From an uncultured Methylococcus sp. (GTDB taxonomy: Bacteria > Pseudomonadota > Gammaproteobacteria > Methylococcales > Methylococcaceae), in the NCBI GenBank assembly GCA_964419105.1, contig CAYQOJ010000004.1, forward strand, positions 10,993 through 55,080: a stretch of 44,088 nt of DNA. The letters run 5' to 3'. A program made the position numbers and the translations under genes. Of this stretch, positions 22,886 through 38,423 are shown piece by piece (position 1 is the stretch's first letter; the number at the start of each line of letters is the position of its first letter). The notes beneath the pieces are model-generated. The model was not told the DNA's origin, did not search any database, and was given only the letters and a program-made list of their open reading frames with translations.

Positions 22886-23404
22886 ATGCACACACTAATC
22901 ACCTTTCCAAGAAGTGGTGCACACTTTTTTCAAAACTATTTAAAACAGGCCACTGGATATGAGATTGAAAAGACTCATAAGCCTGTGGATATACCGCATG
23001 TTTTGACGATAGTGCGTGATCCAATTGAGTCTATTGCTTCCTTTTCAGCCATGTTAATAGAGTATAACGGGCACTCAGTAGAGGAAACGGTGGCCAAACT
23101 AATAGAAAATTATGAGGCGTACTATACATACTTTTCTCATCATGCAGAATTGGTTATAGATTATAACAAATTGATAACGGAACCAGAAAATACCGTGAGC
23201 AAATTTACAGACATTGCTGGTATCAAGTTTAATAAAATTAGTTATGTTGACGATATTGTGGATATGAAGGATAAGAGGCATTTTAAAACTAGCAAAAATA
23301 AGGATTCATACACTAACTCTATAGACATGCTTAACCGCATGAAAAAAGAACTTGAATCTTGTTATGACAAATATAATAACCTTTTGAGAAAGTCTATATC
23401 ATAG
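22886..23404 (+). CDS. Sulfotransferase-like protein
   Basis: The N-terminal TFPRSGAHFF resembles the PAPS 5-prime-phosphosulfate loop. IVRDPIESIAS resembles the 3-prime-phosphate motif (RDPxxxxxS). TATAAT (22874-22879) lies 6 nt upstream of the ATG. Confidence 0.55.
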   Translation: MHTLITFPRSGAHFFQNYLKQATGYEIEKTHKPVDIPHVLTIVRDPIESIASFSAMLIEYNGHSVEETVAKLIENYEAYYTYFSHHAELVIDYNKLITEPENTVSKFTDIAGIKFNKISYVDDIVDMKDKRHFKTSKNKDSYTNSIDMLNRMKKELESCYDKYNNLLRKSIS

Positions 23405-23945
23405 ACAATTCTGGATCTACAGAGAACCACATAGGAAAACTATATCTTTTGCCAGCAACAGCCTTAACTCCATGGTCATAATCTTTTGCTCTTGGGGGAA
23501 ACATAATAAGTCCTCCATGCTCTGGCTTATACTCAACAGATAATCTTGGGAAGAATATTTCTCCACCCTCCTCTATGTCGGTTAAATATAGAACTGCAGT
23601 GTAATCAATATGCATCCCGCCATCAGTATGAACGTCCATTGTGCTTCCATCGTCCTGTCTGACTAGCCAAAAGTTACATGGATAAACTGTTTTATTAAAC
23701 ATTTCAGATACTTTATCGGTTGCCTTCGATAGAATATGCTCTGCTAGTGGGGCGAGGTCTCCAAGAATGTCTGTATTTGGGTGCAGGTCATGAACGTGAT
23801 ACACCATTTCCTTGGTACCAAACTGTAATGTCCAGCGAGCACCTCTAGGGCTAGCAAAGAATATTGGCAAGTTATTGTCTATATATTCAATTATCCTTGC
23901 AGAGTCTTCTCTGGATATAAAGTCTGAGGCAGTATAAATTTCCAT
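23394..23945 (-). CDS. Prolyl 4-hydroxylase-like 2OG-Fe(II) dioxygenase
   Basis: VHTDGG...TAVLYLTDIEEGGEIFFP...GGLIMFP...YDHGVKAVAGKRYSFPMWF gives the HxD...H facial triad and the P4Hc-type core. The ATG at 23945 is preferred over the GTG at 23951. Confidence 0.8.
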   Translation of the reverse strand: MEIYTASDFISREDSARIIEYIDNNLPIFFASPRGARWTLQFGTKEMVYHVHDLHPNTDILGDLAPLAEHILSKATDKVSEMFNKTVYPCNFWLVRQDDGSTMDVHTDGGMHIDYTAVLYLTDIEEGGEIFFPRLSVEYKPEHGGLIMFPPRAKDYDHGVKAVAGKRYSFPMWFSVDPELSMI

Positions 23946-23990
23946 ATTCACAATTATACCATCACAGCCGTTTCCTGGTATAATGTATTT

Positions 23991-24611
23991 ATGAATAGTG
24001 AATTATTGGCCCCTGGAATTATACAGTATAAAAACGTCATACCAAATTATGATAGGCTCATGACCCTGCTCAACGACGAGTCAGTCTCTTGGAACGATGC
24101 CCTGATTGTGGCAAGCAGAGATCCAAAGGAAGACCCAACGAGTATAGAGCCAAAACTTAATCGTGATATCAGAAACTGTGGCTCCATTGCAATGCCATAT
24201 GACAAATATGAAATGCAGTCCTTTATTCCAGATGAGAGAATGAGGGATGTATACTTTGAGATGCATGACATAATCAAGCCAGTCTTTACTTATTATGAAG
24301 ATGAATACATGAAAGATTTTAAGATTAATGTTAGATCCTGGCACTCTAGATTAGAGTTTTTAAGATATGATGTTGGACAATTCTTTGAGGACCACATTGA
24401 TACCGTTCCAGGAATTACTAGAACAGTGTCTGCAGTTTTATATTTAAATGATGATTACGAAGGCGGAGAAATTTATTTTTCTAGATTTGATTTAAAGATT
24501 AAGCCAGAAAAAAATTCTTTAATTTTGTTTCCTTCAAACTATGTTTATAATCACAGTGCTGAGCCAGTAAAAAATGGTACAAAATACGCAATAGCCACAT
24601 TCCTGGCTTGA
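23991..24611 (+). CDS. Prolyl 4-hydroxylase-like 2OG-Fe(II) dioxygenase
   Basis: EDHIDTV...SAVLYLNDDYEGGEIYF...NSLILFPSNYVYNHSAEPVKNGTKYAIATF. It is a paralog of 41838-42503. TATAAT (23979-23984) lies 6 nt upstream of the ATG. Confidence 0.8.
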   Translation: MNSELLAPGIIQYKNVIPNYDRLMTLLNDESVSWNDALIVASRDPKEDPTSIEPKLNRDIRNCGSIAMPYDKYEMQSFIPDERMRDVYFEMHDIIKPVFTYYEDEYMKDFKINVRSWHSRLEFLRYDVGQFFEDHIDTVPGITRTVSAVLYLNDDYEGGEIYFSRFDLKIKPEKNSLILFPSNYVYNHSAEPVKNGTKYAIATFLA

Positions 24612-26775: not shown

Positions 26776-27462
26776 ATGGACTATAATCAAAAAGTAATGG
26801 TATTGAAAAACTTTCTTTTAGAATCTGAGGTTGCTGAATTAAAAGAAGCAATTAGATTGGTCAGGGAGCACAAGCAGCCAGAACATGAGGTCCTAGAGTT
26901 TAAGCATTGGTCCAGAATTAATCACGGGATACATATTCCAGATTCAGTATTCAAAAAGTTTCAAGAAGCAGCATGGCAATACGGAGACCCATCTCTTCAA
27001 TTTACCCACCAAACATCATTCATCTACAAGCCAGAACTTGGGGGAACTACTCAATGCCCTCCACATACAGATGGTCATCAGACACAGTTCTCTATGGACT
27101 ATCAGGTTGAGGCAAATGTGGAGTGGCCTTTGTGGGTAGAGGGAGAAAAGTATGTTTTGCAAGACAATGATGTTTTGATTATGAGTGGAAGAAGCCAGGT
27201 TCACTGGAGAGAAGAAAAGCATTTGCAAGAGGGGGAGTATTGCGACATGTTTATTCTTCACTTTGCAGAGCCAGACTACTTAGACAAGCAGGAAAAGGGA
27301 TTAATACAAAATGCCCCAGAAACTTCTTACAAGATGGCTGAAGAAATGTACAGTCCAACACTTGAAGGAACAACCTTGCAGGGTAATGATCCAGAAGATT
27401 CCAAACCAAATGTTTGCGTCAGCAAAGACCAGATAGATCATTCCCAATGCAGTCACGACTAA
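26776..27462 (+). CDS. Cupin/2OG-Fe(II)-oxygenase-like protein with Cys/His C-terminal tail
   Basis: The start at MDYNQKVMVLKN has TATAAT (26764-26769) 6 nt upstream; the track start at 26722 lies inside the tRNA. PPHTDGH...QVHWREEK suggests HxD...H. It is a paralog of 29846-30496. Confidence 0.6.
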   Translation: MDYNQKVMVLKNFLLESEVAELKEAIRLVREHKQPEHEVLEFKHWSRINHGIHIPDSVFKKFQEAAWQYGDPSLQFTHQTSFIYKPELGGTTQCPPHTDGHQTQFSMDYQVEANVEWPLWVEGEKYVLQDNDVLIMSGRSQVHWREEKHLQEGEYCDMFILHFAEPDYLDKQEKGLIQNAPETSYKMAEEMYSPTLEGTTLQGNDPEDSKPNVCVSKDQIDHSQCSHD

Positions 27463-28478
27463 ACAATAAAATATTTTTTCAGATTGCTGCATGGAGAGAT
27501 CCATTCGTTATACAAACAATAGAGCATGCAATTAAAAATGCTTACTCTCCGAAAGATCTAGTTTTTGGAGTTGTTTTTCAGGGTTACGAAGAAGATAAGT
27601 GGATGATTGATAACATACACAATCTTGGGGCAGAAGTACGACTAATAATGATAGATGCTAACGATGCCCCGCTATCATTATGTAAAATTCGTGGCCCAAT
27701 CGGATGTTCTGTTATGCAAGACGAATCATTTTACATACAGACAGACTCTCACACTAAGATGAACCATCATTGGGATATTAGTCTTAGAGCAGAATTGGAA
27801 TTAGCCAATAAATTATTTGGCAAAAGTATTATTACTGCTCAATCTTCAAACTTTTTTAGATGGGACGACGACTTTATTGAGAATAATCAGATATCAATTC
27901 CAGACGAAGAAGTTTTTAAAAATATTGGTGCCCCAGTTGTTGGCAGGCTAGAGGTAAAAAAGGATACAGTTCAGGTTAAAGAAAAGTTTTTTAATGCTAA
28001 CTGTGTATTTGCTTATTCTGATTTTGTTCGTGATGTCCCTCAGCCTTCAGAAATTCTGTTCCAATACGAACAGCCTATGATGGCACTAAGAACGTTTACT
28101 GGCGGGTATTGGATGGTTTCCCCAACTAGATCATATAGCAGTGTATTTGATTACCATAATGGCATGGAGTCTAAAAGCCGTGATAGTTATATAAAGTACA
28201 TTAGATTTGAAGACCCTGTGTGGATGGAAAGATGGGGTAATAAAGAGCAACAAAATAAAGAGTTATATGAAAAGATTTTAAGCGAAGAAATTATAGACAA
28301 AGACAATGGGTTGCTAGATAAAAGAACTTTGGCTGAGTTTATAGACTTTGCAGGATATAACCCGCTAACTCTTGAGGTTACTAGACAGCATGATTTGTAT
28401 GAAGATGGAAACTTCGTTTATGTTAGTCCAGAAGTATTAGAAGAAACAAAAGAAAAAATTAAACTACTTTACAATTGA
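27447..28478 (+). CDS. Glycosyltransferase, Gnt1/GT60-like 'GlcNAc transferase' family
   Basis: FFQIAAWRDPFVIQTIEHAIKNAYSPKDLVFGVVFQ and IQTDSHTKMNHHWD match the YRDP...P..vfvGv.Q and DSH..f..gWD signatures recalled for PF11397. The start at MQSRLNNK overlaps the upstream gene by 16 nt. Confidence 0.65.
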   Translation: MQSRLNNKIFFQIAAWRDPFVIQTIEHAIKNAYSPKDLVFGVVFQGYEEDKWMIDNIHNLGAEVRLIMIDANDAPLSLCKIRGPIGCSVMQDESFYIQTDSHTKMNHHWDISLRAELELANKLFGKSIITAQSSNFFRWDDDFIENNQISIPDEEVFKNIGAPVVGRLEVKKDTVQVKEKFFNANCVFAYSDFVRDVPQPSEILFQYEQPMMALRTFTGGYWMVSPTRSYSSVFDYHNGMESKSRDSYIKYIRFEDPVWMERWGNKEQQNKELYEKILSEEIIDKDNGLLDKRTLAEFIDFAGYNPLTLEVTRQHDLYEDGNFVYVSPEVLEETKEKIKLLYN

Positions 28479-32211: not shown

Positions 32212-32567
32212 TTTGTATCTTTACTTTCTGGAATCATTCCAATTAAATCTTCATAGGCCAACTTTATATCAGGGTCAGAACCGCTGTCCATGGCATCTTT
32301 TAAATTAACTATTTTACTTTGTACAGCCTCTATGTACTCAAAAGCCCAATCTCTAGAAGTATTTAAAAATTTAACAAAGCCTTCATTGTCTGATAGAGAT
32401 TTTTCTGCAAGTGCCTCTCCTAATTTTTTTGATAGAACAAGAACATCTGCCTTTTCTTGTGCAAGTGCAGAAATAGCCTTTGCCAACCTTAATCTCAAAC
32501 TAATTACTTGATATATGGCTGCTCCCAACAAAGCCATAAAGAGTATAAACGATCCAAACTCTACCAC
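32208..32567 (-). CDS. N-terminally anchored coiled-coil membrane protein
   Basis: 119 aa with one TM helix (FGSFILFMALLGAAIYQVISL). It could be a lysis accessory protein. Confidence 0.5.
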   Translation of the reverse strand: MVEFGSFILFMALLGAAIYQVISLRLRLAKAISALAQEKADVLVLSKKLGEALAEKSLSDNEGFVKFLNTSRDWAFEYIEAVQSKIVNLKDAMDSGSDPDIKLAYEDLIGMIPESKDTK

Positions 32568-33055
32568 TTGGACCTACCATCTAGTTTATGAGTTACCCAA
32601 AAATACTTGCATCCGTCACAGCATGGCATATTGTCTTTGCTATTTACGGCATAGGCAAAAGTGTTATAGAACTCTGGATCTTTTTTGTATAGATTGGCAC
32701 GATGGGTTGTAGTTACAAGCCTCATTATTGCTGAATTTTGATACCACTGAGGAAACTCTTTGCCCCACCAATCACCATTTACTGATACAAGACCACGAAT
32801 ATTTTCTTCATTCTTGTCAGTCTTAATGCCACGCTTTTTAGCCTCATCAACCATAGACATAACATATGTATGCAAGATTGACTCAGCACCACGCCACATC
32901 TTTACGGCAGGATGATTGCGCCAACCAGCAAATGGGTCATCACTAGATAGAACCTTCAGAATTTGATACCCCTCAAGTACCTGCTTATTGAGTCGCTTAG
33001 AATCTAGCATGCTTGCTGATGTAGCAAAACTCTTAGACGGCAAGAACGTTTGCAT
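32561..33055 (-). CDS. Pyrimidine-dimer-DNA-glycosylase-related (MSMEG_6728-like) protein
   Basis: MQTFLPSKSFATSASMLDSKRLNKQVLEGYQILKVL...GWRNHPAVKMWRG matches the recalled MQTFLPY.dF..SA..LD..RLgKQR...HPa..MW pattern of that family. Confidence 0.5.
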   Translation of the reverse strand: MQTFLPSKSFATSASMLDSKRLNKQVLEGYQILKVLSSDDPFAGWRNHPAVKMWRGAESILHTYVMSMVDEAKKRGIKTDKNEENIRGLVSVNGDWWGKEFPQWYQNSAIMRLVTTTHRANLYKKDPEFYNTFAYAVNSKDNMPCCDGCKYFWVTHKLDGRSKW

Positions 33056-33291
33056 TATTCTTCTACTCCACCTTCTCGTACCAAAAGTACGATAGCCCCA
33101 TTATCCTCAAGGGCCTTCTTGACCCTCACCATATATTCTACAGCATTACGCTTCTCTTCGTCAAGTAGGGACATGAATTGTTTTTCACTAGCCTTTACAG
33201 TCAAAAAATGATCATGATCAATAATCTGAAGAGAGAAGCCCTTTGGCGCTCTAATAGAGTGGAATGCCATTTTCATTGCATCTGTATACAT
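33055..33291 (-). CDS. Hypothetical protein
   Basis: 78-aa ORF with start and stop overlaps in the operon. Confidence 0.55.
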   Translation of the reverse strand: MYTDAMKMAFHSIRAPKGFSLQIIDHDHFLTVKASEKQFMSLLDEEKRNAVEYMVRVKKALEDNGAIVLLVREGGVEE

Positions 33292-33518
33292 TATTTATCC
33301 TTATTCATACTATCAGTGATTCTTCCCCACTGTATATAATTCCAGCCACGCTCATGAGTATAGTATACAAATATCTTAAGAACAGTTTCCCAGAATGCTA
33401 TGATTCCAGACAACGCTGCACTTCCAGTAATTATATATACCACTAAAAATGAAGATAGGGTACCCCAAATCCTATAACTAAGAGCCTTTACAAATGATCT
33501 ACTTCTTGTTACTTTCAT
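33291..33518 (-). CDS. DUF2061-like small membrane protein
   Basis: The start at MKVTRSRSFVKALSYRIWG was chosen. The YYTHERGWNYIQWG motif is paralogous to 36921-37121 (YYGHERAWTKFG). Confidence 0.55.
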   Translation of the reverse strand: MKVTRSRSFVKALSYRIWGTLSSFLVVYIITGSAALSGIIAFWETVLKIFVYYTHERGWNYIQWGRITDSMNKDK

Positions 33519-33568
33519 GGAAGTATATCCTCTCTTCTGCTTCGGCAATCTTATTCTCAAACAAAATA

Positions 33569-34330
33569 CTATAGACCAAGTTCTTTGCGCTTCTGAGTAG
33601 CCGATATAGCATGAATCTCTGCCCCCAAATCTACTTGTTCGATTTTATAACCAACATCTCTACCATACACAATGTTAGTAATGTTTGGAAGCCTTACCAC
33701 CAATGTGTCTTTGAATATATTTCTGTTATTTTCAAGTATTCGATCTCTAACTTGCGTATAAGTAAGCGGATCTTTTTCCGAAGTTCCATAAGTATTTCTC
33801 ACACCTACTAGCACCTGACTAGTTCTTTTGTGAGCCTCCTCCTTCAATGCCTGATGCCCCTCATGCCATGGCTGATATCTACCAAGTTGCAGGGTACATG
33901 GCGCAGACCAGTCAAACAGATTACCTGCCTGAATAACTGTATCCACTTCCTGTTCTATTGTATACCCATCTAGAATACGAATATCAAATTTGGTTGGCTC
34001 TTGCCACATAGCATTTGTGTCTTCAAATCTCCCAGACTTGATTCTATCAACCCACACAAGAAGGTCTGGCTTTCCAAAAGCATTTCTTGTTTCTTTAGTT
34101 GGACATACAAAATCTACGACTACAGTATTGCCTTGATTAGATAAAAGTTTTGATATCTCTCCAAGTCTTCTGGCATGCTCAACCCTATCCGAAACATCAA
34201 AGCCAAGATCACTATTGATGGTTGCTCTAACCTCATCGGCATTTAGGTGTATAGCATTGATCCGTTCTTTCAATGCCTTTGCCAATACGGTTTTTCCCGC
34301 ACCTGGCAACCCAATAATCTGTATAATCAT
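33569..34330 (-). CDS. Fusion: APS-kinase-like domain plus cytidylyl/adenylyl-transferase-like (HxGH, ISxT) domain
   Basis: N-terminal: GLPGAGKTVLA...LNADEVRATINSDLGFDVSDRVEHARRLGEISKLL, compared with the APS kinase pattern LDGDNVR..LN.DLGFS..DR.ENIRR.GEVAKL. C-terminal: LGRYQPWHEGHQAL (the GxFxPxHxGH motif) and HAISATQKR (ISSTxxR-like). Confidence 0.7.
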   Translation of the reverse strand: MIIQIIGLPGAGKTVLAKALKERINAIHLNADEVRATINSDLGFDVSDRVEHARRLGEISKLLSNQGNTVVVDFVCPTKETRNAFGKPDLLVWVDRIKSGRFEDTNAMWQEPTKFDIRILDGYTIEQEVDTVIQAGNLFDWSAPCTLQLGRYQPWHEGHQALKEEAHKRTSQVLVGVRNTYGTSEKDPLTYTQVRDRILENNRNIFKDTLVVRLPNITNIVYGRDVGYKIEQVDLGAEIHAISATQKRKELGL

Positions 34331-34342
34331 TTACTTCCCAAT

Positions 34343-34636
34343 CTATTTGTCCATTGTTAGTGACTGCCACTTTTCAGCCCACTGAGCCTTGCTCCTGTGT
34401 TTATTGAACTCTCTAGATATTGAACCATCCTCTAGATAAATTCCGCCCCACACGCCCCATTCTTTTTGAGACACTCCAACCGCAAAACACTGTCTTGCAA
34501 CTGGACAATCCGAACAGAGTTTGTCTATTGCTGGTCTTAAGTTTAGGTCGTCTTCATATTTATCAAAAAATAAATTAAAGTCGTAGTCTTTACAGGAGGC
34601 ACGATTTTTCCATTCGTGTCTGTTCATGGGGGTCAC
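34343..34636 (-). CDS. whiB: WhiB-family Fe-S transcription factor
   Basis: Four Cys (C-x26-CSDCPVARQC) followed by the GVWGG turn. Confidence 0.85.
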   Translation of the reverse strand: MTPMNRHEWKNRASCKDYDFNLFFDKYEDDLNLRPAIDKLCSDCPVARQCFAVGVSQKEWGVWGGIYLEDGSISREFNKHRSKAQWAEKWQSLTMDK

Positions 34637-35639: not shown

Positions 35640-36005
35640 CTACTCATCTGCGGACATGAGTCGTATAATCTCCTTTAGGCTATACCACTGGTCTCTCTTT
35701 AAACTCCTAGTCTTTGTTTCATCTAATGCCTTTTCTGTTAGCCTTACGGTTGGATTTGACTCTGTTATGTCCATCTCTATAAAACCATTTTCCCAAAGAA
35801 ACATCATTTCTTTATAGAAATAATTTGACATGTCCTTATGAAGTGCTGGAGAAAATTGTGCTAGTTTTTCTGTAAAAGTATATAGTGGCTCATTGGTCTC
35901 CAGATCAATTCCAACAACCTCTACTGCTCCATTAAGGATTAACTCTTCTAAAAACTTATCTTCTTCACTGGTCACTTTTTGCCCTCTGCTTTGCAAGAGC
36001 ATCAA
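35640..36005 (-). CDS. Hypothetical protein
   Basis: 121-aa ORF. Confidence 0.5.
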   Translation of the reverse strand: MMLLQSRGQKVTSEEDKFLEELILNGAVEVVGIDLETNEPLYTFTEKLAQFSPALHKDMSNYFYKEMMFLWENGFIEMDITESNPTVRLTEKALDETKTRSLKRDQWYSLKEIIRLMSADE

Positions 36006-36372
36006 AGTCCTTTACCTTTGTATCTCCAAGATACCCCCAAGCATAACCTTTTTCGATCATCTCATGGTTTACGGAATTGCCATCTCCATCCAGGTAAAGC
36101 CATCCAAGTATTCTTCCATACTTCTCAGAACTATCAAGTTTTTCAGTCTTAATAACAATATTTTTGGCAGCCTTTAGTCTATCAGTTAAATATTTTTTAG
36201 ACTCAAGTCCAAGAGCCTTTTCTTTTTTATCTGAAGTTCTAGACTCTGGGGTGTCAATGCCAGCCAATCTAACTCGTGAGGCATACATGATACTAAAACC
36301 TAGATCAATTACAACATCGATTGTATCTCCATCTACGACTTTAGTAACTTCTTTAACAAAATACTCGTACAT
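35965..36372 (-). CDS. Staphylococcal-nuclease (SNase/thermonuclease) family nuclease
   Basis: VVDGDTIDVVIDLGF...VRLAGIDTPE...KYGRILGWLYL are SNase hallmark blocks. Confidence 0.8.
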   Translation of the reverse strand: MYEYFVKEVTKVVDGDTIDVVIDLGFSIMYASRVRLAGIDTPESRTSDKKEKALGLESKKYLTDRLKAAKNIVIKTEKLDSSEKYGRILGWLYLDGDGNSVNHEMIEKGYAWGYLGDTKVKDFDALAKQRAKSDQ

Positions 36373-36617
36373 TAGTTTTCACTTCCTATAAGTCTATTCT
36401 CGACAAGCCTATCTCGCTCGTCTGTAATTTCAAATGCAAACTTCATCATTGCATCATATCCCACGGCATTATCCATAATTTTATTATAGTGGTGGGCACA
36501 GAATGTTAGTTCTCCAGAAACCCCTTTAACCATTACGTATGCTTGTGCAGAGCATCCGCCATTATCGCATCTATCAAGTGCAGTAAGCGTCCACTCTTTT
36601 TCTACCATTGTGCTCAT
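36372..36617 (-). CDS. Cys/His-containing hypothetical protein
   Basis: 81 aa with CDNGGCSAQAYV...FCAHHYNK. Confidence 0.55.
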   Translation of the reverse strand: MSTMVEKEWTLTALDRCDNGGCSAQAYVMVKGVSGELTFCAHHYNKIMDNAVGYDAMMKFAFEITDERDRLVENRLIGSEN

Positions 36618-36629
36618 AATTATACCCTT

Positions 36630-36812
36630 CTATTTACGGTTGTCTGTTTTATAAAAACCGCTACCATTAAAAGTAACTGCTACAGCAGAGTATACACGAT
36701 TTAACTTATATCCGCAAGTCTCACATAGATACTCTGGTTCAGGTGCGGAGATTGATCTCTCTTTTGTTACCTGTGAATCACAATTAATACAGGAGTAATC
36801 ATAGGCTGGCAT
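36630..36812 (-). CDS. FmdB-family zinc-ribbon protein
   Basis: MPAYDYSCINCDSQ...YLCETCGYKL is a CxxC-x(n)-CxxC arrangement with the typical MP.YdY.C start. Confidence 0.7.
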   Translation of the reverse strand: MPAYDYSCINCDSQVTKERSISAPEPEYLCETCGYKLNRVYSAVAVTFNGSGFYKTDNRK

Positions 36813-36921
36813 TCTTATTTTTCTTTTTCTCTTTCACATACCATATTGGTAAATTAAGATTGTCTCCAGACCACTCATAGCCAAGTGCCTTTACGACAAA
36901 TCTAATAATCTTAATTCTCAT
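36799..36921 (-). CDS. Possible 40-aa basic peptide
   Basis: MRIKIIRFVVKALGYEWSGDNLNLPIWYVKEKKKNKNASL. The ATG overlaps the upstream stop. Confidence 0.3.
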   Translation of the reverse strand: MRIKIIRFVVKALGYEWSGDNLNLPIWYVKEKKKNKNASL

Positions 36922-37121
36922 TATGCAACATTCCTTCCAAATTTGGTCCAAGCACGTTCGTGCCCATAGTATATTATACTCTCTACAAGCGTTTGTGTCA
37001 AGGAGAGGGCGACAGCAGCAACCCAATTTCCAACAAAGAAATAGGCCACTACTGCCACCATAGCGATATTGACTATATACCAAGATACAGACTTATATAC
37101 GCTTCTTCTCCTTGACTCCAC
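36921..37121 (-). CDS. DUF2061-like small membrane protein
   Basis: RSVYKSVSWYIVNIAMVAV...ESIIYYGHERAWTKFG. It is a paralog of 33291-33518. Confidence 0.55.
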   Translation of the reverse strand: MESRRRSVYKSVSWYIVNIAMVAVVAYFFVGNWVAAVALSLTQTLVESIIYYGHERAWTKFGRNVA

Positions 37122-37786
37122 TACTCAGCCACCATAGGTTTCGATGCGGTGGATACTTTTTGTGCAGCCTTTGCAGGTTTCTTTGCAGGAGCCTTTTTAA
37201 CTGCAGGTTTTGGTGTTTTTGGTCTTGCCCCATGAACTGGAGCAGGAGCAACTGGTGCAGTCTTTGGGGTTGCAACAGGTGCTGCCTCCCTAACAGACTC
37301 CATAGCCATGAGTGCTTTTGCAAACTCAATTGGCTCCACAAAGCCTCTGCCATCATCAGTCCATCCGTGGGTTTTACCCTTCCAGATTTCCCAGTGCAAA
37401 TGCTTCCCAGTTGATGCTCCGCTAGTACCCATTTTACCTAAAACTGTACCAGCCTCAACTTTATCACCAACTTTAACCTGAAGAGATCCCTTGAGCATAT
37501 GTGCATACAAAGATGTGTAGTAATCTCCACCAATCATATGACGAACGGTTACATAGTATCCAAAACCGTCTGGCTCTCCGTTAGACTTCTTCAGTTTAGA
37601 TGGTCCCGCATGAATTACAGTGCCCTTGTAGAATGACTCTACGTAGCACGGCTCTTTGCTAGACCATAGGTCGACACCATTATGGTGTCTTTTCTTTTTT
37701 GTTATTGGATGGACTCTCCAACCAAAAGGAGACGTGATCTTGAAATTTTTTCCAAGTTTCCCGTCTATCGGTAATTGAACTTTCAT
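37121..37786 (-). CDS. M23-family metallopeptidase (endolysin component) with polycationic tail
   Basis: The start at MKVQLPIDGK follows an AAGGAAAAAA RBS. HHNGVDLW gives HxxxD and GKHLHWEIW gives HxH. The C-terminal tail is PKTPKPAVKKAPAKKPAKAAQK. Confidence 0.8.
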   Translation of the reverse strand: MKVQLPIDGKLGKNFKITSPFGWRVHPITKKKRHHNGVDLWSSKEPCYVESFYKGTVIHAGPSKLKKSNGEPDGFGYYVTVRHMIGGDYYTSLYAHMLKGSLQVKVGDKVEAGTVLGKMGTSGASTGKHLHWEIWKGKTHGWTDDGRGFVEPIEFAKALMAMESVREAAPVATPKTAPVAPAPVHGARPKTPKPAVKKAPAKKPAKAAQKVSTASKPMVAE

Positions 37787-37793
37787 TTTTTCC

Positions 37794-38423
37794 TTACATA
37801 ACTTGCATAGGCTTACCACCACCAGCAGATTTCTTTGCTGGCTTCTTAGCAGCCTTTTTTGCTGGCTTTGGTGCCTCTGCCTTATTAAGCAGTGGCTGAC
37901 CCTCTTCACCAACATAAACAGGACGACCCCAACCAACGACACCGTTGATTAGTTTCTTCTTGTTATTCTTGACGTATGCACGTGTCTTTTCAACACACAT
38001 TCCGCCATTTCTCTGGTCACCCTTTGCGGTACCAGAAGTGTTACCCTCAATAACCTGAATGGTTCCGTCACCATTATTCTTAATACAGATTCCAACATGA
38101 GAGATTCTGTTGACCCCATCTTCAGGAAAATCAAAGTAGATCCAGTCTCCTGGTGTAGGGTCATCGTTACGAGCATCTGCCCATCGATTATTCTTTTTAA
38201 ACCAATCAGATGCAGCCACAGTCGACGCTGACTTTGGATACTTCTTTGGATTTAAACCTGCGGTGTGTGCACACCAAGACACAAAAGATTGGCACCATGG
38301 CTGGAAGTTTACACCAGTCCACTTACCATACTTTGTTTCATTATCTTTTGGACCCTCAATGGTTCCAACTTCTTTTTTGGCAACCTCAATGATTGATGCT
38401 ACCGTTCCTTTTGCTGCGTTCAT
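37794..38423 (-). CDS. CHAP-domain amidase/peptidase (endolysin component) with polycationic tail
   Basis: NFQPWCQSFVSWCAH holds the catalytic Cys region, followed by ISHVGICIK and IEGNTSG. The C-terminal tail is KPAKKAAKKPAKKSAGGGKP. A GGAGG RBS precedes it. Confidence 0.75.
   Translation of the reverse strand: MNAAKGTVASIIEVAKKEVGTIEGPKDNETKYGKWTGVNFQPWCQSFVSWCAHTAGLNPKKYPKSASTVAASDWFKKNNRWADARNDDPTPGDWIYFDFPEDGVNRISHVGICIKNNGDGTIQVIEGNTSGTAKGDQRNGGMCVEKTRAYVKNNKKKLINGVVGWGRPVYVGEEGQPLLNKAEAPKPAKKAAKKPAKKSAGGGKPMQVM

Follow-up and report, generated by a model that had tools for sequence, protein, structure and literature searches.

The window, by which we mean the whole 44,088-nucleotide stretch of DNA analyzed here, encodes a 253-residue protein, K-N, that fuses an APS-kinase-like domain (K) to a small HxGH nucleotidyltransferase domain (N). 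We propose that K-N is a compact PAPS synthase, in which ATP and sulfate are joined into APS by N and the APS is turned into PAPS by K. We assign this reading a probability of roughly 0.7. The phage is thus likely to produce activated sulfate (PAPS) for itself. The initial annotation had suggested that a kinase and an adenylyltransferase in one polypeptide would be an analogue of the PAPS synthases and would serve a phage sulfotransferase. Comparative evidence now supports this suggestion: the residues, the fold, the fusions, and the cysI-cysH, aprM-aprB-aprA, and sulfotransferase contexts. The features of the locus, by position in the window, are as follows.

22886 to 23404, plus strand: mini sulfotransferase of 172 aa (Pfam Sulfotransfer_1), the presumed PAPS consumer
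33291 to 33518, minus strand: DUF2061 two-helix membrane protein (PF09834), on the same strand as K-N and 50 nt downstream of it
33569 to 34330, minus strand: K-N fusion gene, a lidless APS-kinase-like domain plus a minimal HxGH nucleotidyltransferase domain
33569 to 33913, minus strand: N domain, residues 140 to 253 plus stop, a minimal NMNAT-derived nucleotidyltransferase and proposed sulfate adenylyltransferase
33587 to 33607, minus strand: ISxTxxR motif, I242 to R248 (alignment A1)
33647 to 33664, minus strand: family-specific GRDVGY motif, G223 to Y228, with the invariant R224 (alignments A1 and A2)
33854 to 33865, minus strand: HxGH motif, H156-E-G-H159, read from the sequence
33917 to 34330, minus strand: K domain, residues 1 to about 138, an APS-kinase-type P-loop kinase with a shortened lid
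34166 to 34246, minus strand: APS-kinase substrate block, L29 to R55 (LNADEVR...LGF...DR..H.RR), from the alignment to the human PAPSS1 kinase domain
34289 to 34312, minus strand: Walker A P-loop, G7 to T14 (GLPGAGKT), read from the sequence
36921 to 37121, minus strand: second DUF2061 gene (Pfam DUF2061), directly after the M23 peptidase lysis gene

Domain identities and conservation in K-N

The K-N reading frame begins at an ATG in the ORF list. The protein matches PHROG 10255 over its full length (E = 1.7e-62), and its AF2 model has a pLDDT of 93 and a pTM of 0.85. The K-N family comprises 101 clusters at 50% identity (E ≤ 1e-30), and its motifs are therefore far beyond chance. A near-identity search of GenBank phages with 10 kb of the window gave no match. 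Database entries label the family only as "adenylylsulfate kinase" or "kinase," and viral ecology work counts this type of gene as a CysC auxiliary gene (bioRxiv 10.1101/655167). The literature that we searched held no mention of the fused transferase half.

The P-loop, GRYQPWHEGH, and ISATQKR motifs that had been noted in this reading frame are all present, and Pfam recognizes both halves, as APS_kinase (PF01583; E = 6.1e-17, 62.5 bits against a cut-off of 21.1) and as CTP_transf_like (PF01467; E = 1.1e-4, 22.8 bits against a cut-off of 21). The APS_kinase match spans only residues 2 to 84 (profile positions 4 to 91 of 152), and the NCBIfam apsK equivalog model (TIGR00455) gives 66 bits against a cut-off of 138.7. 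The best PDB sequence matches of K are the kinase domains of PAPSS1 and CysC, with the PAPSS1 kinase at the top (E = 1.3e-10). For this N-terminal half, Foldseek ranks 1 to 49 were all APS kinases (E = 2e-9), with TM-scores, normalized by target length, of up to 0.79. K also keeps the APS-contacting residues.

The substrate block can be matched position by position to the kinase domain of human PAPSS1 (residues 29 to 59 of K-N read LNADEVRATINSDLGFDVSDRVEHARRLGEI). D32, R35, F44, R49, R55, F74, and P77 are invariant in both the K family and the canonical APS kinases, and we take the block of F44, R49, R55, F74, and P77 to be the APS contacts in APS-kinase crystal structures. Within the P-loop (residues 7 to 14), alignment A1 shows no variation at G7, G12, K13, or T14. 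K shares with CysC (PF01583) the P-loop, the D/R/F/R/R substrate block, the FxxP motif, and the overall fold.

The initial annotation had described a close fit to the APS-kinase signature. Two corrections apply: the first Asp of the DGD motif is an Asn in K, which reads L-N-A-D-E-V-R, and the lid is largely missing. Across the K-N family, the first DGD position is Asn in most members and Asp in some. The lid segment of APS kinase, RDxKGLYKKARxGxIxxFTGI, has given way in K to the shorter IKSGRFEDTNAMW. Unlike CysC, K lacks the KGLYKKAR..FTGI lid or has it remodeled to GRFEDTN, and the KG[LFM]Y lid motif was found in none of the lidless family members. K has about 135 residues, compared with 166 to 185 in the two canonical kinase halves aligned. 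K is an APS-kinase-like domain without most of the lid. Given the Asn at the first Asp position and the truncated lid, its kinetics or its substrate could differ from those of a canonical APS kinase.

The N domain has about 114 residues, with GRYQPWHEGH at residues 150 to 159 and ISATQKR at residues 242 to 248. In alignment A1, H156, G158, and H159 of the HxGH motif are nearly invariant, and S243, T245, and R248 of the ISxTxxR motif are invariant. The invariant catalytic residues suggest that N is a working, pyrophosphate-releasing transferase. G223, R224, V226, G227, and Y228 are invariant in both A1 and A2, and N contains two invariant arginines, R178 after strand 2 and R224 within GRDVGY. 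The model of N has three strands only. The domain is small and may need a partner for activity.

An N profile matched NadM and the archaeal NMNATs at an E of 7e-12. By Foldseek the nearest folds are NMNAT and PPAT, with HldC also matched, which fits the Rossmann-like fold of the HxGH superfamily, and the TM-score to 1f9a is 0.76 when normalized by the length of N. N descends from the archaeal/NadM-type NMN adenylyltransferases, with which it shares the GRxQPxHxGH motif, the NP(F/L)T helix start, and (I)SxTxIR. Unlike them, it has gained the GRDVGY motif, which replaces an SGN-containing stretch of NMNAT, as well as the invariant Arg that follows strand 2, and it has no C-terminal helical subdomain. 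Where MJ0541 has the 34 residues 76 to 109, the N profile has 9 positions. We take this stretch to include the NMN- and nicotinamide-contacting residues. The initial annotation had allowed that the C-terminal half might prove to be an NMN transferase. The kinship is real, and N lies outside the ATP sulfurylase family, but the stretch that presumably binds NMN is lost.

No ATP sulfurylase domain of Pfam or NCBIfam matched residues 140 to 253, and there was no ATP sulfurylase among the 50 best Foldseek matches of N. The motifs of Sat are QxRNPxHxxH and GRDHAG. GRYQPWHEGH and GRDVGY of N are analogous strings and may be their equivalents.

N occurs in fusions with APS kinases, both lidless and canonical, and stands before the kinase in some and after it in others. 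Proteins P0184 and P0259 join it to a canonical, lid-bearing APS kinase, and in P0170 and P0267 it precedes a lidless kinase. The form with a canonical kinase makes up at least 119 clusters in marine metagenomes; a 655-aa neighbor of the marine fusion of N and kinase has no Pfam domain. In the Ralstonia phage RsoM2USA, the gene after a kinase-only homologue was a candidate for a split N domain, and on checking it was not N.

Gene contexts in phages and bacteria

The two genes flagged as DUF2061-like membrane proteins are confirmed by Pfam (33291 to 33518, E = 6.4e-17, 62.2 bits; 36921 to 37121, E = 9.9e-13, 48.7 bits; cut-off, 23.1). Of 80 related viral loci, 79 carry a DUF2061 gene, in most cases on the same strand and directly downstream of K-N, and many of these loci have a second, upstream copy. 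However, DUF2061 also occurs without K-N, near SelD/SelU-like genes as a tandem duplicate and on another phage-like contig by itself. Therefore, it is not an obligate partner of K-N. None of the 389 collected proteins is a fusion of DUF2061 and the kinase, and a literature search for the function of DUF2061 found nothing relevant. DUF2061 is a conserved partner of K-N, and we can only guess at its role, possibly as a membrane anchor or an anion-handling component.

The sulfotransferase-like gene at 22886 to 23404, also noted earlier, passes the Pfam Sulfotransfer_1 cut-off narrowly (E = 2e-5, 24.5 bits against 22), which places it with the PAPS-dependent sulfotransferases (PF00685/PF13469). 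Its product carries PRSGAHF and RDPIESIAS, presumably the two PAPS-binding loops of sulfotransferases. Sulfotransferase-like ORFs were found within 10 kb of K-N in 23 of the 80 viral loci. For the reverse test, a viral scan with a single sulfotransferase sequence gave no match, and an alignment-based scan did find homologues of the 22886-to-23404 sulfotransferase; among the long viral loci centered on these, 22 in number, 10 contained the N domain. The viral loci are close relatives (71 to 83% identity), so these synteny counts are not independent. In Sanovirus phages, a NADAR-domain gene is the upstream neighbor of K-N, and a MazG gene is also upstream; the NADAR neighbor is a hint of NAD or ADP-ribose chemistry. 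The phage probably infects an actinobacterium that belongs to a kind without sulfate activation, a pathway reported to be absent from the likely hosts (PMC5301498).

Bacterial neighborhoods bring K-N together with sulfur genes. Three marine alphaproteobacterial loci (L010, L171, and L172) have the operon CbiX-CobA-CysI-CysH-DUF2061-K-N, which ends with K and N. In 10 SAR11 genomes, K and N adjoin aprM-aprB-aprA (aprA, 989 bits; aprB, 189 bits; both over their cut-offs). Surveys of SAR11 have found cysC and aprA co-distributed and sat and cysDN absent (PMC5069961; PMC3448164). We found no Sat, CysD, or CysN signature across 165 loci and the window. TauE is also a recurrent neighbor. In 7 bacterial loci, which come from different families, sulfotransferases validated with Pfam are found no more than 10 kb from K-N; they came from an iterative search from which ten ORFs were sampled with Pfam, 7 of them above the cut-off. 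A simple phmmer search of the bacterial flanks for the window's sulfotransferase or a canonical APS kinase gave no match. In most core SAR11 loci, the immediate neighbors of K and N are not sulfur genes, and enoyl-CoA hydratase and CoA-binding genes are just downstream in the SAR11 core locus. Judged by its gene neighbors in many bacteria, N is probably an unrecognized kind of ATP sulfurylase. Nothing relevant came from a literature search for a "novel" or "alternative" ATP sulfurylase.

Proposed reactions and alternatives

We infer both catalytic activities and the direction of flux. In the proposed mechanism, the HxGH/ISxT chemistry of N would move AMP from ATP to sulfate, giving APS and pyrophosphate. 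R178, together with the R224 of GRDVGY, may hold the sulfate at the place where NMNAT holds NMN. K would then phosphorylate the 3'-OH of APS to give PAPS, as its conserved APS-binding residues and its fold suggest, and PAPS formation by K would pull the unfavorable N step forward. The sulfotransferase at 22886 to 23404 would spend the PAPS on sulfating an acceptor during infection; candidate acceptors are the products of 2OG-Fe(II) oxygenases and a glycosyltransferase encoded in the flanks.

The bifunctional PAPS synthases (human PAPSS1/2, fungal and bacterial Sat-CysC, and CysN/CysC) likewise place a transferase and an APS 3'-kinase domain in one polypeptide. Their kinase is homologous to K, sulfate activation is what we propose for K-N, and both domain orders occur in the K-N family, as they do among the known PAPS synthases. 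However, N sits on the NMNAT branch of the HxGH superfamily, and its 114 or so residues compare with well over 200 in the catalytic module of Sat. K also differs from the kinase of these enzymes in lacking most of the lid and in having NxD for DGD. Unlike CysDN, K-N has no GTPase subunit.

K could be a genuine APS kinase whose partner N is not an ATP sulfurylase and instead carries out some other APS- or PAPS-linked nucleotidyl transfer or has an accessory role, with the APS coming from the host or from AprBA. Examples would be the conversion of APS and phosphate to ADP and sulfate, the conversion of APS and ammonia to adenosine phosphoramidate, and the regulation or scaffolding of K. N is very small and does not look like the known sulfurylases, and the AprBA encoded beside K and N in SAR11 can make APS from sulfite without a sulfurylase. 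Because AprBA could alone supply APS in SAR11, that context also fits an N that works solely in reverse or in another APS-related reaction. However, the cysI-cysH-DUF2061-K-N operon contains no other sulfate-activating gene, and phages whose hosts are reported to lack the pathway would have no source of APS (PMC5301498). The HxGH/ISxT conservation likewise argues against an accessory N. We consider this explanation unlikely.

It is quite improbable that K-N uses this two-step logic to make a different 3'-phosphorylated nucleotide donor. One such product would be CoA from 4'-phosphopantetheine, with a PPAT-like N and K as the 3'-kinase. CoA synthase (PPAT plus dephospho-CoA kinase) also pairs an HxGH transferase with a P-loop 3'-OH kinase, the best fold matches of N include PPAT structures, and the enoyl-CoA hydratase and CoA-binding genes of the SAR11 core locus lie close by. 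However, the kinase of CoA synthase belongs to the CoaE family whereas K is of the APS-kinase type, N lacks the extra loops for a large acceptor, and CoA-pathway genes do not recur beside K-N. The other such product would be a PAPS analogue like the CDP-phosphoramidate 3'-phosphate of Campylobacter. In Campylobacter jejuni, Cj1416 and Cj1415 are a phosphoramidate cytidylyltransferase and a CDP-phosphoramidate 3'-kinase (PMC11800397). Here too, as we propose for K-N, a small anion is nucleotidylated and then 3'-phosphorylated by an APS-kinase homologue to yield a group-transfer donor, and Cj1415 makes CDP-phosphoramidate 3'-phosphate together with Cj1416 to Cj1418 (PMC11800397). Unlike K-N, Cj1416 and Cj1415 are separate proteins, work with a CTP-based nucleotide, and belong to a capsule-modification context. 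The recurrent neighbors of K-N are sulfur specific (CysI, CysH, AprMBA, sulfotransferases, and TauE), and the two arginines and the phenylalanine aligned to the APS-kinase substrate block are retained in K.

A role in NAD salvage, with N as an NMN adenylyltransferase and K as a nicotinamide-riboside or related kinase, which would resemble NadR with the domain order reversed and could counter an NAD-depleting defense, is very improbable: NadM, archaeal NMNAT, and NadR are the closest relatives of N by sequence and structure, and the NADAR and MazG genes of Sanovirus would fit, but we reject the NadR-like reading because the segment that we take to bind NMN is missing from N; in addition, three NCBIfam NMNAT models score far below their cut-offs (22.4 against 397, 21.7 against 127, and 16.8 against 181 bits), K looks like an APS kinase and not like a ribosylnicotinamide kinase, and it is sulfur genes, not NAD genes, that recur around K-N. 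The TagD-like alternative offered in the initial annotation found no support, as there were no glycerol-phosphate or teichoic-acid neighbors except one Glyphos_transf gene in a single locus (L053).

Implications for sulfur metabolism in phages and aquatic bacteria

We lean somewhat toward a broader form of the PAPS-synthase reading. N would be a third, minimal class of ATP sulfurylase, about 115 to 130 residues long and derived from NMNAT. With the lidless kinase, it would supply the missing step of sulfate/APS interconversion in streamlined bacteria, SAR11 and SAR86 among them. For SAR11, this would round off the oxidation of sulfite that depends on AprBA, whereas some marine alphaproteobacteria would use it for assimilation in place of CysDN. 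Phages from fresh and marine waters would have acquired both domains, along with DUF2061 for sulfate handling, for sulfation of their own.

If N is an ATP sulfurylase, then these phages carry a complete, host-independent route to PAPS together with a sulfotransferase. The oddity of SAR11, which has aprBA and cysC without sat or cysDN, would gain a concrete answer, and metabolic reconstructions may be mistaken where they rate the assimilation of sulfate or the oxidation of sulfite as "incomplete" in aquatic bacteria that are abundant. At about 250 aa, such a PAPS-generating enzyme might also find use in enzymatic sulfation.

The fusion gene and its two domains

The gene for the K-N fusion, which joins an N-terminal kinase half (K) to a C-terminal transferase half (N), lies in a minus-strand run of densely spaced genes, as read from the ORFs of the window. 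The run and the other minus-strand genes that bear on the host are as follows:

34343-34636 (-), WhiB (WhiB-like regulator), first gene of the run
33569-34330 (-), K-N fusion, 253 aa, second
33291-33518 (-), DUF2061 protein (Pfam DUF2061), third
between the DUF2061 and Pyr_excise genes (-), 78-aa ORF, fourth
32561-33055 (-), Pyr_excise (pyrimidine-dimer DNA) glycosylase, fifth
36921-37121 (-), second DUF2061 copy (Pfam DUF2061)
36372-36617, 36630-36812 and 35965-36372 (-), among them a DUF7455 protein, a CxxC...CxxC zinc-ribbon protein and a staphylococcal-type nuclease

The presence of WhiB and DUF7455 points to a probable host among the actinobacteria, and the minus-strand gene set together with the window's G+C content of about 39% suggests a phage of low-GC freshwater actinobacteria.

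The fusion protein matches PHROG 10255 ("kinase") over its full length (1.7e-62). The Pfam APS_kinase match is confined to residues 2-84 (E = 6.1e-17), and residues 150-197 match CTP_transf_like (E = 1.1e-4). The nearest NCBIfam model to the first half is apsK, at 66 bits against a cut-off of 138.7; those nearest to the second half are NadM and archaeal NMN adenylyltransferases, far under their cut-offs. The AlphaFold model, built from 36 diverse homologues, is confident (pLDDT 93, pTM 0.85).

In a fold search with this model, the best 49 PDB matches of K were all APS kinases (49/49), and a PDB sequence search put the PAPSS1 and CysC kinase domains on top. Alignments showed that the P-loop, the substrate-block residues D32, R35, F44, R49 and R55, and also F74 and P77 are invariant in the K family and in canonical APS kinases. 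The K family usually has Asn at the first Asp of the DGD motif, and a short GRFEDTN segment stands where canonical kinases have the KGLYKKAR..FTGI lid. By sequence and fold, K is a divergent member of the APS kinases that lacks the canonical lid; the fold matches and the substrate block bear out the initial annotation, which had called this half APS-kinase-like.

A profile search with N found NadM and archaeal NMNAT at an E value of about 1e-11, followed weakly by PPAT. The fold search returned the same families, and ATP sulfurylase was absent from its matches. R178, the Arg after strand 2, is invariant in the N family, as are the motifs YGRDVGY, HxGH and ISxT..R. Compared with the archaeal NMN adenylyltransferase MJ0541, N has 9 residues in place of 34 after strand 3, a stretch that we take to hold the nicotinamide contacts of NMNAT. 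N belongs to the NMNAT branch of the HxGH superfamily. It lies outside the ATP sulfurylase family but probably does the job of an ATP sulfurylase. The two nucleotidyltransferase motifs named in the earlier description, HxGH and ISxT, are confirmed in this half.

Sulfur genes next to K and N in bacteria

Among 600 candidate stretches listed, at least 206 bacterial N relatives were confirmed, and we studied the best 80 of these loci. In MarineAlpha6-type marine alphaproteobacteria, the gene order is CbiX-CobA-CysI-CysH-DUF2061-K-N:

L010 4071-8404, operon
L171 2000-7118, operon
L172, operon

None of cysD, cysN and sat lies near the operon in these three loci, and its CysH shows CC..CxxC and ECGIH, motifs that characterise the iron-sulfur (APS reductase-like) type. 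In this sulfate assimilation operon, one function alone is lacking, sulfate adenylylation. In 10 SAR11 species genomes (L022, L023, L024, L026, L032, L033, L034, L035, L040 and L048; example, L032 10418-13582), separate K and N genes directly adjoin aprM-aprB-aprA (APS reductase), called by exceeding NCBIfam equivalog cut-offs. SAR11 surveys report that cysC and aprA are co-distributed and that sat and cysDN are absent (PMC5069961; PMC3448164). Seven bacterial loci have a sulfotransferase, validated with Pfam, no more than 10 kb from K-N (Sphingomicrobium, Inquilinus, Bradyrhizobium, an unclassified alphaproteobacterial MAG, Rhodospirillaceae, Pelagibacteraceae and Flavobacteriaceae), and the last of these also has a TauE/SafE permease gene. 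Sat, CysD and CysN signatures were found in 0 of 165 loci and nowhere in the window.

The best-supported model, with a probability of roughly 70%, is that the fusion is a compact PAPS synthase, in which N would adenylylate sulfate and K would phosphorylate APS. Three other readings fit these sulfur-specific neighbours less well: that N acts on APS in another way; that K-N makes another 3'-phospho-nucleotide donor, for example CoA or the CDP-phosphoramidate 3'-phosphate of Campylobacter (PMC11800397); and that K-N serves NAD salvage. The cysI-cysH operon, aprM-aprB-aprA and the sulfotransferases support the original proposal of a PAPS-synthase-like fusion that would serve a phage sulfotransferase.

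Other neighbours were also seen. A pyruvate-kinase barrel-only protein (~330 aa) adjoins K/N in two unrelated bacteria (L084 1716-2723; L053 3844-4824), alongside a TauE/SafE permease and a sulfotransferase in L084. In one complete SAR86 genome (L025 8643-9542), the gene immediately upstream of K and N encodes a membrane protein of PF03601, the YeiH/putative sulfate exporter family. In the marine loci where N is fused to a canonical APS kinase (L166-L170; e.g., L166 10001-20933), an MFS/PTR2 transporter lies upstream of the fusion. Downstream come, in order, a conserved 655-aa protein that lacks any Pfam domain, a 1660-aa RTX-type (HemolysinCabind) protein, and TPR and 2OG-Fe(II) oxygenase proteins.

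Distribution and domain order

The fused form is abundant: it comprises 101 clusters at 50% identity (E ≤ 1e-30), and many viral contigs have it, with at least 545 stretches confirmed among 600 candidates listed. Full-length homologues with 36-39% identity occur in 12 GenBank phage records, among them phages of Xylella, Stenotrophomonas, Xanthomonas and Clavibacter; the labels of the homologues inspected read "kinase" or "hypothetical protein." In SAR11 and SAR86, separate but overlapping genes mostly encode K (~135 aa) and N (~124 aa), and most soil alphaproteobacterial loci have them fused. Full-length, lid-bearing APS kinases are fused to N in both orders (proteins P0184 and P0259), N precedes a lidless kinase in P0170 and P0267, and marine data contain at least 119 clusters of the form in which N is followed by a canonical kinase (~310 aa).

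High-GC homologues, presumably bacterial (P0126, P0187, P0209, P0210, P0213, P0216 and P0257), join the lidless kinase, alone or together with N, to a membrane domain at either end that by eye looks like DUF4118 (KdpD-type). Two viral contigs (L233 and L236; 6999-7757 and 19397-20197) each have two K-N copies on opposite strands, about 12 kb apart, with a sulfotransferase between them.

DUF2061 and the sulfotransferase in phage loci

Of 80 related viral loci, 79 contain a DUF2061 gene, a count that is not independent evidence because the phages are close relatives. In most, it lies on the same strand, 25-110 bp downstream of K-N, and many loci, like the window, have a second, upstream copy. 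The pairing with K-N recurs in the MarineAlpha6 operon and on a contig binned with Synechococcus. DUF2061 also exists without K-N: a tandem-duplicated form (145 aa; L174 3128-3565) has AIRS-domain (SelD-like) and Rhodanese/SelU genes close by, and K and N are absent there. A luciferase-like monooxygenase directly follows DUF2061 in 19 of the 80 viral loci (e.g., L087 6924-7742) and is absent from the window. Before the window's second DUF2061 copy are two ORFs that, from their sequence appearance, we take to be M23/CHAP lysis genes:

37121-37942 (-), M23 peptidase-like, directly upstream
37794-38423 (-), presumed cell-wall hydrolase, with lysine/alanine/proline-rich tails

The two share about 150 nt, which makes it likely that one of their starts is internal. 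Because it follows presumed lysis genes, this DUF2061 copy could be holin-like.

The candidate modification genes of the window are:

22886-23404, sulfotransferase, 172 aa (Pfam 24.5 bits; cut-off 22)
23394-23951 (-), 2OG-Fe(II) oxygenase
23991-24611 (+), 2OG-Fe(II) oxygenase
27414-28478 (+), GlcNAc-type glycosyltransferase

The sulfotransferase carries the motifs PRSGAHF and RDPIESIAS. The two oxygenases flank it and the glycosyltransferase follows some 4 kb downstream, an arrangement that could amount to an island for hydroxylation, glycosylation and sulfation. Of 80 viral loci, 23 have a sulfotransferase-like ORF no more than 10 kb from K-N, and in four of these it lies directly upstream. 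In the reverse test, N was found in 17 of 76 sulfotransferase-anchored viral loci, and in 10 of the 22 with a length of 15 kb or more.

The K-N homologue of Sanovirus phages (Xylella Sano and Stenotrophomonas Bhz60) comes after a NADAR-domain gene; a few kb upstream are a MazG-like pyrophosphatase and an annotated cysteine dioxygenase gene (L001 2199-2876 and 5553-5996; L002 5553-5996).

As a compact PAPS synthase, the phage K-N pair would feed the sulfotransferase. Its hosts are likely to be acI-type actinobacteria, which reportedly lack the sulfate activation pathway (PMC5301498).
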